Assembly (NCBI GenBank): GCA_951406725.2
Contig: OX597822.1
Coordinates: forward strand, 41,106,001-41,170,000
From: Octopus vulgaris
Taxonomy: Eukaryota
DNA length: 64,000 nucleotides
Reading direction: 5' to 3'
Shown: piece after piece, positions 9,249-54,364 of the stretch
Position numbering within the stretch: position 1 is the stretch's first letter
Layout of the letters: every line of letters begins with the position of its first letter
Translations under genes and position numbers: made by a program
Notes under the pieces: generated by a model
Seen by the model: the letters and a program-made list of their open reading frames with translations, nothing else
Database searches by the model: none
Told to the model about the DNA's origin: nothing

Positions 9249-9465
9249 GGTTAATCCAAACGGGAAAACAGAAAAAACAACAACACGTGGAACAATTACA
9301 GTATTATTATTATTAGGCGCTCAGGAAAATGGAAGAAGGAGGGTATGACGTTTCGAGCGGAGCTCTTCGTCGGAAACATAAGAGAAGGAAGAAAGAAGAA
9401 AGAAAGATCCCGATGTGGGCGAAAGAGGGAAAAAAAACGCGACTGGTGTTTACGAAGTACACATG
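9249..9465 (-). mobile_element. Penelope-like element terminal fragment with hammerhead-like motif
   Basis: Same sequence at 45517-45730 and 47727-47938; minus strand gttt-ccgacga-a-gagc-tcc-gctc-gaaac-gtc; abuts (AT)n. Confidence 0.65.
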
Positions 9466-9919
9466 CTGAAAGTACACTTGTATATATATATACAAGTTGT
9501 AATAAATAGTCATCTATGTAGCATATCTAATGTATACACACTGTCAATAGGCAAGTTACTGCAGTATTTGTCCTGAGATAACAACTCTTATAAACGTTCT
9601 CAATTAAAAACACAGAGGCAAAAATTCGTCCCACCAGCGACCAGCCAGAGCATCAGATAGATGCATTTCAACCACTCTTATGAAAAGATTTTTCTGTACT
9701 ACGTACTCACAGCCAACTGGCTGGGAATTCCTATGAGTAAGACAATAAATTACAAGGAGCATCAGAAGCGTTAGATGAGAAGGAGAAAAGTAACCATCGT
9801 CAATGAAAAACCATCATCCAAGTGTTCGAATAAATATGTATGTATGTGTATGTATGTGTGCATGTGTGCATGTATGTGTGTGTATGCGTATTTGTGTATA
9901 TGTATGTGCATGTAGGTAT

Positions 9920-10019
9920 NNNNNNNNNNNNNNNNNNNNNNNNNNNNNNNNNNNNNNNNNNNNNNNNNNNNNNNNNNNNNNNNNNNNNNNNNNNNNNNNN
10001 NNNNNNNNNNNNNNNNNNN
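9920..10019. other. Assembly gap (100 N)
   Basis: Run of exactly 100 N. Confidence 1.
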
Positions 10020-11147
10020 GATAGCAACAACAACGACAACAATTTATTCAATGATTTATTTCTGCGATTCTTCCTGTTTTAATGTTGGAGGAAGACCAAG
10101 AGAGTTCGTCTGGGATACAGAGAGACAAGAAGATGGAGAGATACAAAGATTCTGAGATGAGATAGGTGGTGATAGATCGCTAAATATTTCGGTGACACCT
10201 AAATCCCTATATGTGTACACGTGTGTACACGTGTGTACACGTGTGTGTGTGCTTGTGTGTGCTTGTGTGTGTGTGTATGAGTGTGTGTGTGTGAGTGAAT
10301 GTGTGTGTGTGTGAGTGTGTGTGTGTGTGTGAGTGAGTGTGTTTGTGTGAATGCGTGTTTGTGTGTGTGTGTGTGTGTGTGTGCGCACGCGTTTGTGCGT
10401 ATGTGTGTTTGTGTGTGTATGTGTGTGTGAGCGCGCATATGTGGGTGTTTGTGTATGTGTGTGTGTACGTATGTGGGCGAGACTTTATATACGTATATAT
10501 ATATATATATATATGTGTGTGTGTGTGTGTGTGTGTGTGTGTGTGTGTATCTTTTATGTTTTACTGGTTTCAGTCATTAGAGTGCGGTCCTGCTGGGGCA
10601 CCGCCTTAAAGGAATATTAGTCGAACGAATCGAACCCAGTTCTTTTCTTCTTTCTCCTTAAGCCTGATACTTATTTCATTGCCAAAATATAGGGACGTCA
10701 ACACTCCAACACCGGTTGTCAAGTGGTGATGAGGAACAAACACAGAAACAAAGGCCCACATTCGCCCGCGCGTACTCACACACACACACACACACACACA
10801 CAAACAAACACAAACACACACACACACACACACACACACACACACACTATTTTCAATCCATCAATAATACTGACAGAGCAAACTGAAATATGAATGTACC
10901 TAAAATGTATATCAGAAACAACTGTAAGCTTGCAATGCACAAATATATAAATGCACAATGCCCATTATCGATTCCTTTTCTTGTATCATTCTGTGAAAAC
11001 ATACCGTATCAACTTGGTAATGCAACCATCGATTTACAAAGTCTGGACGTTCCTCAGCCTTTTCTCAGCTTGGTGCATTGTATCAACAGAGAACTTAAGA
11101 ATTGTTCCACTCGGATTGATAATCCATTCTTAATATATATATATATA

Positions 11148-11285
11148 TCAAGATTAATCAGCCGAAATTGCTACGATGATCCGGTTCTTGACTGAAGATT
11201 GAGGGCTTCGAATGTCCCGTCCGTGTTTTTTGTATCGTCTTTTAAGTGTTTTGCGTTCTTGTCCTAGTTTGTATTTTTCTACATA
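11148..11285 (+). mobile_element. Penelope-like terminal fragment (family also at 18855-19015, 29885-30111, 45040-45390)
   Basis: cagccgaaattgc..ttgactgaaga..cttcgaatgtcccgtc..tgttttgcgttcttgtcc shared among the four loci; sits in AT-repeat context. Confidence 0.55.
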
Positions 11286-50896: not shown

Positions 50897-51183
50897 TGAG
50901 TACAACTCTGAATAGGGCTAAATCTATTTATTGTTGGTTCGCAACAGTATTTTTTTTCTGCACATAAATATAGCAGATTTGAATACTGCGATGTTTTCAC
51001 GGAAATTTGACATCCCATGTCTTCCTGCTTTGTTGTCTTGAGCGTATATAAACCGAGATTCCAAATTCTTAAATATATATATGTTGCACAACTGAACAAA
51101 CTTGTGCCAAAGTAAAAGCGTCTCTTTTCATGTAAGTCTGATGAAGTGCCACTTAAATGTAACCAACCGCAAATAATACATTT

Positions 51184-52526
51184 CATTTCACATAAAACCA
51201 TTCACGTGTATTGGTGTTCAAAACGAATTGCTATCGAAACGATTGTAACTAGTAACTATTTTCTAACTGATGTTTTATACGTAGCTTTCACGATTAGTTA
51301 TGATAAAATTATTTTAGCATTTTCTACCTTGACTTATTTTCCTTATATATATATATATATATATATATATATATATATATATATATATATATATATATAT
51401 ATATATATATATGTATGTATGTATGTATGTATTGTTGTGTTTCAGGATGGTCATGGTCATTTTCTTTTTGCCAAATAAATATCTCTTTTACTTGTTTCAG
51501 TCAATTGACTACGGCCATGCTGGAGCACCGCTTTTAGTCGAGCAAATCGACCCCGGGACTTATTCTTTGTAAGCCCAGTACTTATTCTATCGGTCTCTTT
51601 TTGCCGAACCGCTAAGTTACGGGGACGTAAACACACCAGCATCGGTTGTCAAGCAATGCCAGGGGGACAAACATATACACACACACACACACACACACAC
51701 ATATATATATATACATATATACGACAGGCTTCTTTCAGTTTCCGTCTACCAAATCTACTCACAAGGCATTGGTCGGCCCGGGGCTATAGCAGAAGACACT
51801 TGCCCAAGATGCCACGCAGTGGGACTGAACCCGGAACCATGTGGTTGGTAAGCAAGCTACTTACCACACAGCCACTCCTGCGCCTATATGTATTCTTTTA
51901 TACTTTTATCGTTTCAGCCACGCAGCTGCGGTCATGCTGGAGCACTACTGAGCTCTTTTTCATTTCCCCAATCTAGCGTGTTTTACATCACCACTCCTGT
52001 ATGTGCCTATATATATATATATATATATATATATATATATATATATATGACATAATATAATATAATAAATATAATATAATATATTATAATATAAATACAA
52101 ACATGCATACGTCAAAATGTATCTGAGCCAAAATGTATGTGAATATGGATAATCAGCGAGGATGCTAAAGGCATGAAGACCAAGTTTTCAGCCCACGTCA
52201 CGTATATCCGAGTAGATTAAATAACTCCATAAAGCCGTAGGATTTATAAGCAAGTTCGCTGGCAAACTTATAACTGATCGGACATTTCCATAGAACTAAC
52301 CAAACATTGATAAAGATGAAGATAAAAACTGCTACATCCTCGGTAACCCTCCAGTTTGATTGTTGAAATTCAGGTACAGAACAGACTGTTTTATATTTTG
52401 ATAACTAATCGTGAAAGGTACGTCTCAAACATCAATTAGAACATAGTTACTAGTTACTAGTTACAATTGTTTCGAAAGTATTTCGCTTTGAACACCATCA
52501 CACGAGAATGGTTTTATGTGAAACTG
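51184..52526. mobile_element. Fold-back element with ~125 bp TIRs and nested SINE A (51482-51885, minus strand)
   Basis: catttcacataaaaccattc..tttcacgattagttat versus ataactaatcgtgaaa..gaatggttttatgtgaaactg. Confidence 0.75.
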
Positions 52527-54322
52527 GAACAAGAAGCTGACAGAGGAACAAACCGCATAATAGCAGAAAACACTCAATGGAAGTTTACATGTTTATGCCC
52601 TCATCAGTTACCGTTTAAATATCGCCACAACTTCGATATTTTCCGATGATATTGTTCAATTTGGCGCTGTGAGCTGAGATATAAATGAATGGGCATGATA
52701 GACAAGTGCAATAACACTAACACACACACACACACACACACTACAGAAGCAAACACGTATAGAAACACACGCATACGCACACACACACACATATGATAAA
52801 TAAACAAAAGAATACGGTTGGCGGTACTGTATGTTATTCTTATGCTTACTTTTATCCACTGGGATAAGCGTACCAGCCTCATAATCGGTATTTTCCCCGG
52901 ATTTACGGTTTGTATGGAATGTTATTTGTATTAATGGAATAGTTTGCGCGCGTGTGTGTGTATGTATTTATGTATGTATGTATGTATGTAAGTATGTATG
53001 TAAATATATATATATATATAGATTTATTTATCTGCACAAGGGAACTATTTCTGAATGTTTGTGATTGTTACATCGTGATGTGTGTGTATGTGTGTGCGTG
53101 TGTGTGTGAGTATGTGTGTGAGTATGTGTGTGTGTGTGTGTGTGTGTGTGTGTGTGTGTGTGTGTGTGTGTGTGTGTGTATGTGTGTGTGTGTGCGTGCG
53201 TGCGTGCGTGTATGTGTGTCAGGCCAGCAGACCAAATCAAAATATGAACAGAAGCAGAACAGCATTAATCACGTGCTAGCAAAATGAATGAATGATGCTA
53301 CCACGTCAGTCGATCAATTGATCCGCCATGTTGACTAGCCAGTTTACATTAAGTGAATCCACGTGTAAACATTGATGATATGATCACCTCCCACCGCTAC
53401 CCCCACATTCTCTTCATATATACTGAACCTACTCTAAACACACACTCCATACAGAATGACACTGTAAACACACGACATAGAGAAGATTGTGTACACAAGT
53501 TGACTCATCGGGTCTTAACTGGTTCTTTAACTTAGAAGCCAAAGAAAGATGATGGTAAATTGCTAGAATCATTAGATTAAAGGAGGTAATGCCGTGTGAT
53601 TATAGAGTAACGGTTTCTAAGATTCTGAGTTCAAATCCCGCCGAAATAAACTCTGCTTTTATCCATTCGAGGATGATAAAATAAAATAGCTGAAATAAAA
53701 TCAAGTACTGAGTTGGGAGGTATCGACTAACCCCTTTTATATTTTGCTTATTCCAGTCATTAGACTGCGGCCACGCTGGGGCAGCGCCGTGAAGAATTTT
53801 TGATCTATGGAATCGACCCGAGTACTTTTTTTTTTAATTTTTAAACCTCGTACTTATTCTAACGGTTCTTTTTGTCGAACTGTTAAGTTACGGTGATGTA
53901 AACAGACCAACGCCGGTTGTCAATCAGTCATGGGGGACAAATACACACACACACACACACACACACACACATATATATATATATGTATATATATATTTAT
54001 TTATTTATTTATAGATAGATAGATAGATATATATATATATAGATAGATAGATAGATAGATAGATAGATAGATAGATAGATATGGCTTAATGGTTAGAGTG
54101 TTGCGTTCGCGATTGCAAGATCTTGGTTTCGATTCCCAAACCGGGAGTTGCGTCGTGTTCTTGAGCAAAACACTTCATTTCATCTTGCTCAGTGATCAGT
54201 TCGTCATCTCACATGTGGTACCTGTACAGGTAATGTCGATTTGTGTGTGTGTGTGTGTGTGGGGGCATTATTTACATTATTTACATTTGACGGATATTTG
54301 TCCTCATCTTGTTTGTCGTTAA

Positions 54323-54364
54323 CAGAACGTTTCAGCAGATATACCCTCCAGCCTTCATCAGGTG
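54323..54364 (-). ncRNA. Penelope-type hammerhead motif (canonical core, decayed stems)
   Basis: rc: cac-CTGATGA-aggctgga(gggtata)tctgct-GAAAC-GTT-ctg. Confidence 0.55.

Follow-up and report, generated by a model that had tools for sequence, protein, structure and literature searches.

Can the catalytic core of a hammerhead ribozyme depart from its consensus throughout whole retrotransposon families, and is such a motif still able to cut? This question is raised by a 64,000-nucleotide (nt) stretch of the Octopus vulgaris genome (assembly GCA_951406725.2, contig OX597822.1, positions 41,106,001 to 41,170,000, forward strand; here called the window), in which a preliminary description had placed six hammerhead-like motifs within Penelope-like elements (PLEs). 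All six were found at those places and on those strands, and all parse to the same order of stem I, a 7-nt core, an extra A, stem II, GAAA, a 2-nt palindrome, UH, and stem I'. They fall into four repeat families, A1 (loop II of 3 nt), A2 (loop II of 4 nt, with the stem II of A1), B, and C, each with the type-I order. Two core substitutions, U4C in A1 and A6U in A2, proved to be family-wide and not the result of per-copy decay.

Minimal hammerheads in four repeat families

The six motifs are not chance occurrences, since a core-free pattern of the A type matched 37,103 places in the 2.8-Gb genome and none with the reversed control, and structure descriptors applied to ∼1.9 Mb of genomic DNA gave 178 matches against 4 in reversed sequence and 183 against 0. 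Exact searches with the 19- to 20-nt motifs of the 3' tail found 10,665 places for A1, 20,661 for A2, 99 for B, and 9,734 for C. The extra A (A9a) and G10.1 were present in 77/77 copies of A1 and 77/77 copies of A2, the palindromic positions 15.2-16.2 read CG in A1, A2, and C and UA in B, and the NUH triplet was kept, with G at H17 in 1/81 A2, 0/67 A1, and 0/48 B copies.

All six are minimal type-I hammerheads of the published PLE kind. A1, A2, and B are classed as variants, not as plain members, because they lack the consensus core CUGANGA (or a U3-A8 core); CUGANGA was the state only of C and of A1's older subfamilies. That the architecture itself is unusual is not supported: an extra nucleotide after A9, palindromic positions 15.2-16.2, and high variability within a genome are all published for PLE hammerheads (PMC4209133).

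Variant cores are family states

Family copies were chosen by the motif 3' of the predicted cut, so that selection was independent of the core; a minority came from loci fetched otherwise. For A1, 67 of 82 copies had a parsable motif, with the cores CCGACGA (44 copies), CUGACGA (12), and CCAACGA (4), and C4 was present in 51/67. Exact genome matches to the 28-nt core block of this family numbered 7,786 with C4 and 2,928 with U4, in agreement with the earlier claim that U4C is shared. For A2, 81 of 102 copies were parsable and 77/81 carried U6, as in the core CUGUUGA described at 44322; the U6 block had 15,153 exact matches (the A6 block was not counted genome-wide). In the same 81 copies, N7 was A in 28, U in 29, C in 14, and G in 10, and H17 was A in 64, U in 14, C in 2, and G in 1. 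At the subfamily level, H17 is A, U, or C.

CpG decay was considered as the source of the C4/U4 split in A1 and rejected, with the 12 CUGACGA copies outnumbering the 4 with the mirror change, CCAACGA, and with flank differences linked to the split. Because of these linked differences, the U4 copies are regarded as older subfamilies, not as decayed C4 copies. A tree was built from the flanks only (81 A1 copies, 3 A2 outgroup copies, truncated copies excluded). The U4 copies were mostly basal and C4 was found in younger groups, with weak support (Shimodaira-Hasegawa-like approximate likelihood ratio test, 80 to 93, and no clade test); position 4 changed five times and position 6 not once. U4C in A1 is therefore likely derived. 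In the corresponding flank-only tree of A2 (80 copies), position 6 changed 2 times, N7 15 times, and H17 10 times.

For family B, 48 dispersed copies with stem I were compared, many of them from loci chosen by likeness to the window copy. The core was CUGUGGA in 30/48, with U6 in 47/48, C4 in 7/48, and A7 in 1/48. A6U is thus the family state of B too, and U4C as a B state was rejected. The core CCGUAGA reported at 42743 is present there and is specific to that copy or to a minor lineage; a minor lineage with both C4 and U6 may exist within B (the same 7/48, five with UU). In family C, CUGAUGA was the core of 80 of 100 parsed copies (112 examined), and the motif at 54323, which had been listed among the non-canonical cores, has this canonical core as well.

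In a further PLE family, typified by locus L227, five young copies carried C4, whereas their five older relatives had U4, which likely represents an independent U4C. It has a different type of GIY-YIG frame and a type-I hammerhead with a longer stem III. Because of this split, and because B has no stems in common with A2, U4C and A6U each likely arose more than once. C4 and U6 together were never a family majority. Among contigs of four sequencing runs (three organism codes), N7 and H17 variants were seen and no alternative at position 6 reached 5%. The A1 contig comparison showed no position-4 variant despite the existing U4 subfamilies, so this comparison is insensitive, and neither of the two bears on expression or cleavage.

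Elements that carry the variants

At locus L264, an A2 motif is preceded by a GIY-YIG frame 869 nt upstream. A genome search with this frame gave 19,385 candidates, of which 150 were scored and 30 loci returned. A hammerhead was found downstream in 29/30, in all 29 with CUGUUGA and GUU. Eight longer stretches, two of them overlapping the picked loci, had the downstream motif in 8/8 and an upstream motif also in 5/8, all with U6. The element contains a reverse transcriptase (RT) with a DKG motif, a CxxxxCxxC linker, and, at the C terminus, a GIY-YIG domain with a Cys/His motif, in the order pseudo-long terminal repeat (pLTR), open reading frame (ORF), pLTR, and the ORF starts ∼0.7 kb downstream of the upstream hammerhead. 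The profile match to RVT_1 was above the cut-off (E 8e-8), and that to GIY-YIG (E 0.005) was below the Pfam cut-off, with the motif visible. Over the 3' 1.5 kb of the ORF, mean pairwise identity was 99.4% (7 copies). A6U is therefore present in each of the two pLTRs of a PLE that is young, autonomous, endonuclease positive (EN+), and of the zinc (Zn)-linker type. By its insertion in microsatellites, A2 may be a Neptune and not a Nematis element. Five of the eight long A2 copies (L361 to L365) share a frame of 767 to 770 amino acids (aa) that starts in a proline-rich repeat and is out of frame with the N-terminal part of L366 and L367; the cause of this offset may be a frameshift common to the five, a layout in two frames, or homopolymer errors.

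The A1 motif followed a second endonuclease family in 4/13 stretches and in 2/2 that were extended (seven were unextended). The two extended young copies (L382 and L383), with near-identical endonuclease frames, finish with CCGACGA, a GUC triplet, and a stem-I mismatch, the combination reported for the window motif at 9343, which is thus a subfamily type. The A1 link is by these endonuclease frames; open frames of this family reach 1,434 aa. Most A1 and A2 copies are 3' fragments of 200 to 300 nt within (TA)n.

The proposed Penelope-like origin is therefore supported for A2 by its GIY-YIG and RT frames and for A1 by its endonuclease frames. Copies of B and C lie in (AAT)n and have inverted or partial-tandem ends, which resembles PLEs, and a PLE origin of both families is probable on these features. 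A linked RT/GIY-YIG ORF was not found near B in 19 ten-kb loci, nor near B or C in an ORF screen. Two tandem arrays of a 137-bp B unit were found at G000:C1:206.287-206.313 Mb (L160 to L180, L310). In the units examined (L310), C3, U4, and the 5' strand of stem I are missing and GAAA is replaced by G-G-A-A, and the arrays were rejected as a non-LTR retrozyme on account of the missing complete hammerhead.

Constraint on the motif

The majority motifs of A1 and A2 are identical at 26 of 30 constrained positions; the four differences are the two core variants and one compensated stem-I pair, G-C for C-G (two positions). In the one pair compared, the endonuclease regions of the two families had 62% DNA and 57% protein identity, and the motif match exceeded this DNA identity with a binomial p of 0.003. 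Stem I reads GUUU/AAAC, CUUU/AAAG, GAAC/GUUC, and ACAC/GUGU by family, and stem II reads GAGC/GCUC, GGCA/UGCC, and GGCUG/CAGCC. The compensatory change claimed for the stems is visible between families; A1 and A2 share stem II, and with only three to four independent lineages no significance can be claimed. N7 and H17 varied and G5, G8, A9, GAAA, and U16.1 did not, a pattern consistent with a slowed ribozyme that can still be cleaved. The pattern of variation leans toward retained cleavage chemistry over a non-catalytic fold, the role that had been offered as an alternative.

Catalysis and alternative readings

The reading preferred here, at slightly better than an even chance, is that the variants are slowed ribozymes, tolerated since the rate of cleavage does not limit the spread of the elements. 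Positions 4 and 6 lie in the CUGA uridine turn and are not acid-base residues, so that their change would lower the rate and leave the chemistry in place. Fast cleavage is seemingly not needed for insertion; master copies would then tolerate core changes, which amplification would carry into thousands of copies. A single motif cannot close stem III with its 4-nt palindrome, A15.1-N-N-U16.1, so a strand-swapped dimer of two pLTRs is the predicted active form, and cutting would proceed slowly in such dimers or with the element's own protein.

Published work gives this reading some support. The acid-base residues of the hammerhead, G8 and G12 (PMC6155905), are both fixed in the variant families. 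U4C lowers activity in vitro yet supports viroid infectivity (PMC3088659), and the natural core variants, U4C in a viroid and A6C in phage Bcep176, are slower but active (PMC3088659, PMC7151607). The A6C phage variant is slow, and A6C cores cleave well with Mn2+ (PMC7151607). In an anole PLE, the hammerhead requires the element's protein for cleavage, and cleavage is not needed for insertion in vitro (PMC11167929).

A number of results weigh against retained cleavage. For a type III hammerhead, a deep scan found low activity in all single mutants of the CUGA turn (PMC9901934). Published minimal PLE hammerheads need a dimer for stem III and already cleave weakly (PMC4209133), and a turn mutation on such a scaffold may bring the summed activity near zero. 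In the youngest A1 subfamily, stem I is weakened by a mismatch on top of U4C, and the active dimer is predicted to lie ∼10 kcal/mol above the monomer ensemble (nearest-neighbor model, first stem-I pair only). Copies with 5' ends within 3 nt of the cut numbered 0/70 in A1, 1/72 in A2, and 3/67 in canonical C, a test of little power, as canonical C, the control, shows no clear footprint either. In B, 4/23 copies begin at the cut or 1 nt after it (by inspection), two of them explicable by stem-I fold-back; with these four among 11 ends spread over 24 nt, the footprint is weak. Blind tests of shared variants gave 2/30 motif columns versus 11/100 others for A1 (p 0.73; 56 copies, narrow subfamily range) and 3/30 versus 33/102 for A2 (p 0.019, modest; 55 copies), and the three shared A2 changes inside the motif are CpG sites. 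A shared-versus-private test with hammerhead-filtered copies and low-complexity flanks gave p values of 0.005 and 1e-6, which the filter biases. Only a handful of independent changes underlie the exclusion of G17. An explanation of the variants by folding was also tried and rejected, the shifts being ≤1.7 kcal/mol, in both directions, and with no steady trend.

Part of this evidence would fit variants that are catalytically dead, with the fold retained as a binding or folding element for the RT/endonuclease protein, an account that is unlikely although far from negligible. The low activity of CUGA-turn mutants (PMC9901934), the use of unprocessed RNA for insertion in vitro, where no cleavage is needed (PMC11167929), the reported spread of Naiad PLEs without detected hammerheads (10.1101/2021.04.23.441226), and the absence of a cut-site pile-up in A1 and A2 all point this way, as does the pairing of U6 with A15.1 that the predicted monomer folds of A2 and B allow. 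However, the positions that vary (N7, H17, and loop II) are those that are free in cleavage, and G8, G12, and the remaining purines of the core do not vary; the RT of the anole PLE starts at a separate AC-rich stem-loop downstream of the hammerhead (PMC11167929), and the folding effects of the variants are small and bidirectional. If the motif were instead dispensable and drifting in master lineages, with U4C and A6U as early steps of loss, then the A1 blind test without extra constraint, the added mismatch in the youngest A1 subfamily, and the amplification of B arrays despite their lost core and stem positions would be accounted for. This is considered improbable: A1 and A2 kept 26/30 motif positions while coding DNA fell to 62%, A2 retained U6 and all stems across subfamilies that changed N7, H17, and flanks, and in the families seen recurrent changes fell on positions 4 and 6 and on swaps of the 3-8 pair, not on G5, A9, or GAAA.

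An alternative core could be fully active if the substitutions were compensated by features of the minimal scaffold, namely the extra A that follows A9, the dimer, a protein partner, or Mn2+. In its favor, two families whose stems are unrelated (A2 and B) are fixed for A6U and two (A1 and the L227 family) for U4C, the latter two both with older U4 relatives, and A6C cores cleave well with Mn2+ (PMC7151607). It is nevertheless very improbable, as the variants come with no second-site change, C4 and U6 are never jointly a family majority, the extra A is also present in canonical PLE motifs (PMC4209133, Fig. S3), and the deep scan rescues CUGA mutants only by a 3-8 swap (PMC9901934). A tentative and rather unlikely proposal is that the uridine turn was relaxed several times and independently (U4C in two lineages, A6U in two) and that these cores function only inside the ribonucleoprotein (RNP) of the element, whose protein would replace the lost contacts.

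Comparison with known hammerheads

The motifs resemble the PLE hammerheads of PMC4209133 in their presence in both pLTRs, the short stem I, the absence of a monomeric stem III, the extra nucleotide between 9 and 10.1, the G10.1-C11.1 pair, and the palindromic positions 15.2-16.2, and also in the many families per genome, mostly as single truncated copies. They differ in the core: 56/56 motifs of Fig. S3 in that work have U4 and A6, without C4 or U6, whereas here C4 or U6 is a family majority. The descriptor used there demanded the core, with U3-A8 as the sole core variant reported. The natural variants of a viroid (U4C) and of phage Bcep176 (A6C) affect the same two positions of the uridine turn, U4C being the identical change (Perreault et al. 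2011; Naghdi et al. 2020); those variants are rare single sequences in viroids or phage, whereas the present ones have reached fixation, on a minimal scaffold, in retrotransposon families with 10^4 copies, and position 6 changes to U. The pLTR hammerhead of the green anole element PAc serves as a working model, with protein-assisted cleavage that is dispensable for insertion in vitro (PMC11167929). PAc belongs to the Poseidon clade and its ORF begins inside the motif, unlike that of A2, and no core variant of PAc is described in the available part of that paper. EN+ PLEs with a Zn-finger linker (Neptune and Nematis) have the DKG motif, CxxxxCxxC, GIY-YIG, and pLTR layout of A2; the linker is common to both clades and does not settle the choice between them (10.1101/2021.04.23.441226). 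The small PLE hammerhead variants of Lunse, Weinberg, and Breaker (2016, via PMC6765202) share the short stem III, the PLE association, and cleavage as dimers, which for the present motifs is predicted.

Hammerheads in PLE pLTRs, U4C as a natural variant, and the extra A with the 2-nt palindrome are already known. Provisionally, what is new here is U6 in both pLTRs of intact-looking elements, a likely derived U4C at the family level, and the repeated occurrence of the two changes. The literature covered gave no family-wide A6U or U4C in PLEs and no natural A6U core, the largest survey of small variants (2016) lying outside that coverage; the available parts of PMC11014351, PMC6155905, PMC6765202, and 10.64898/2026.07.22.740005 likewise contained no family-wide A6U or U4C in PLEs.

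Features of the window and related motifs

The window motifs, the repeat copies that hold them, and related loci are collected in Table 1. A dispersed, short interspersed nuclear element (SINE)-like repeat of ∼185 nt, often in tandem and often after (ATT)n, was also present, with one copy abutting the A2 fragment. CUGANGA followed closely by GAAA or GAAU, in a different layout, was seen at 11192 (+), 18979 (-), 45267 (+), and, as an inverted pair, at 29983 (-)/30014 (+). Elsewhere in the genome, a hammerhead-like family was found whose 3-8 pair is swapped to G3-C8 (core GUGAACA) and which has a 4-nt palindrome and a 7-bp stem I. U3-A8 cores were seen in more motif families and, together with A6, in a relative of B; one A3-U8 copy had a 2-bp stem II. 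A scan of the window against Rfam (E ≤ 10) gave no hammerhead family among the 150 matches listed of 499, those listed being microRNA matches driven by microsatellites, and the output of a repeat finder was dominated by microsatellites.

Table 1. Hammerhead motifs, host repeats, and related features (window positions, or loci elsewhere in the genome)
Feature	Position	Strand	Remarks
A1 hammerhead	9343..9377	minus	Core CCGACGA (U4C), GUC triplet, stem-I U.U mismatch; young A1 subfamily; predicted cut between 9347 and 9346
A1 pLTR, 5'-truncated 3' end of young A1 PLE	9179..9472	minus	Closes with (TA)n microsatellite; 88% identity with L382 over 299 nt
A1 hammerhead	45627..45661	minus	Core CCGACGA (U4C), GUU; CpG change breaks one stem-II pair
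A1 pLTR copy, short	45462..45703	minus	88% identity with L381
A1 hammerhead	47834..47868	minus	Core CCGACGA (U4C), GUU; both stems unbroken; 28-nt core block with 7,786 exact genome matches
A1 pLTR copy, short	47660..47912	minus	86% identity with L381
A2 hammerhead	44322..44359	plus	Core CUGUUGA (A6U), stem I UCUUU/AAAGA, stem II GAGC/GCUC, GUU; cut predicted 3' of 44354
5'-truncated 3' end of young autonomous A2 PLE (RT, linker Zn finger, GIY-YIG)	44099..44482	plus	(TA)n end; 96% identity over 384 nt with L264, there 3' of GIY-YIG frame
Family B hammerhead	42743..42785	plus	Window copy CCGUAGA, palindrome UA, triplet AUC
Family B repeat	42598..42810	plus	Partial tandem and short inverted 5' piece, then (AAT)n
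Family C hammerhead	54321..54366	minus	Canonical CUGAUGA; stems I and II altered privately in window copy
Family C repeat fragment	54266..54383	minus	95% identity with L073 over 118 nt
∼185-nt SINE-like repeat	1768-2136, 5535-6073, 21727-21911, 24756-25560, 42952-43275, 43904-44088, 48839-49256		
Presumed mariner/Tc1 transposase remnant	17190-18116	minus	Assigned by eye
Presumed mariner/Tc1 transposase remnant	62549-63004	plus	Assigned by eye
Presumed mariner/Tc1 transposase remnant	12499-13008	plus	Assigned by eye
L227-type family, C4 copies	L227:2627-2756, L263, L065 (two copies), L258		
L227-type family, older U4 relatives	L237 (two), L143, L274, L028		
Family with swapped G3-C8 core	L373, L242, L320, L269, L236, L129, L234, L319		
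Further core families	L004/L121, L099, L070, L322; L241, L268; L299, L316; L268:4873-5002		

Implications

PLE hammerheads are near-universal in canonical PLEs, weak in vitro, and dispensable for insertion in one reconstituted system. The young, intact-looking variant elements described here stand beside older canonical relatives; they offer a natural test of whether such elements must cut their RNA, and variant and revertant can be compared for cleavage and transposition. Should the variants be dead, PLEs of great success multiply with no need to cleave, and the fold serves some other purpose. Should they cut, descriptors underrate the tolerance of the hammerhead core, and surveys miss tens of thousands of ribozymes in one genome. 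Were relaxed cores to function within the RNP, a large class of PLE hammerheads would escape searches for CUGANGA, and A6U would be the first natural working core of its kind.

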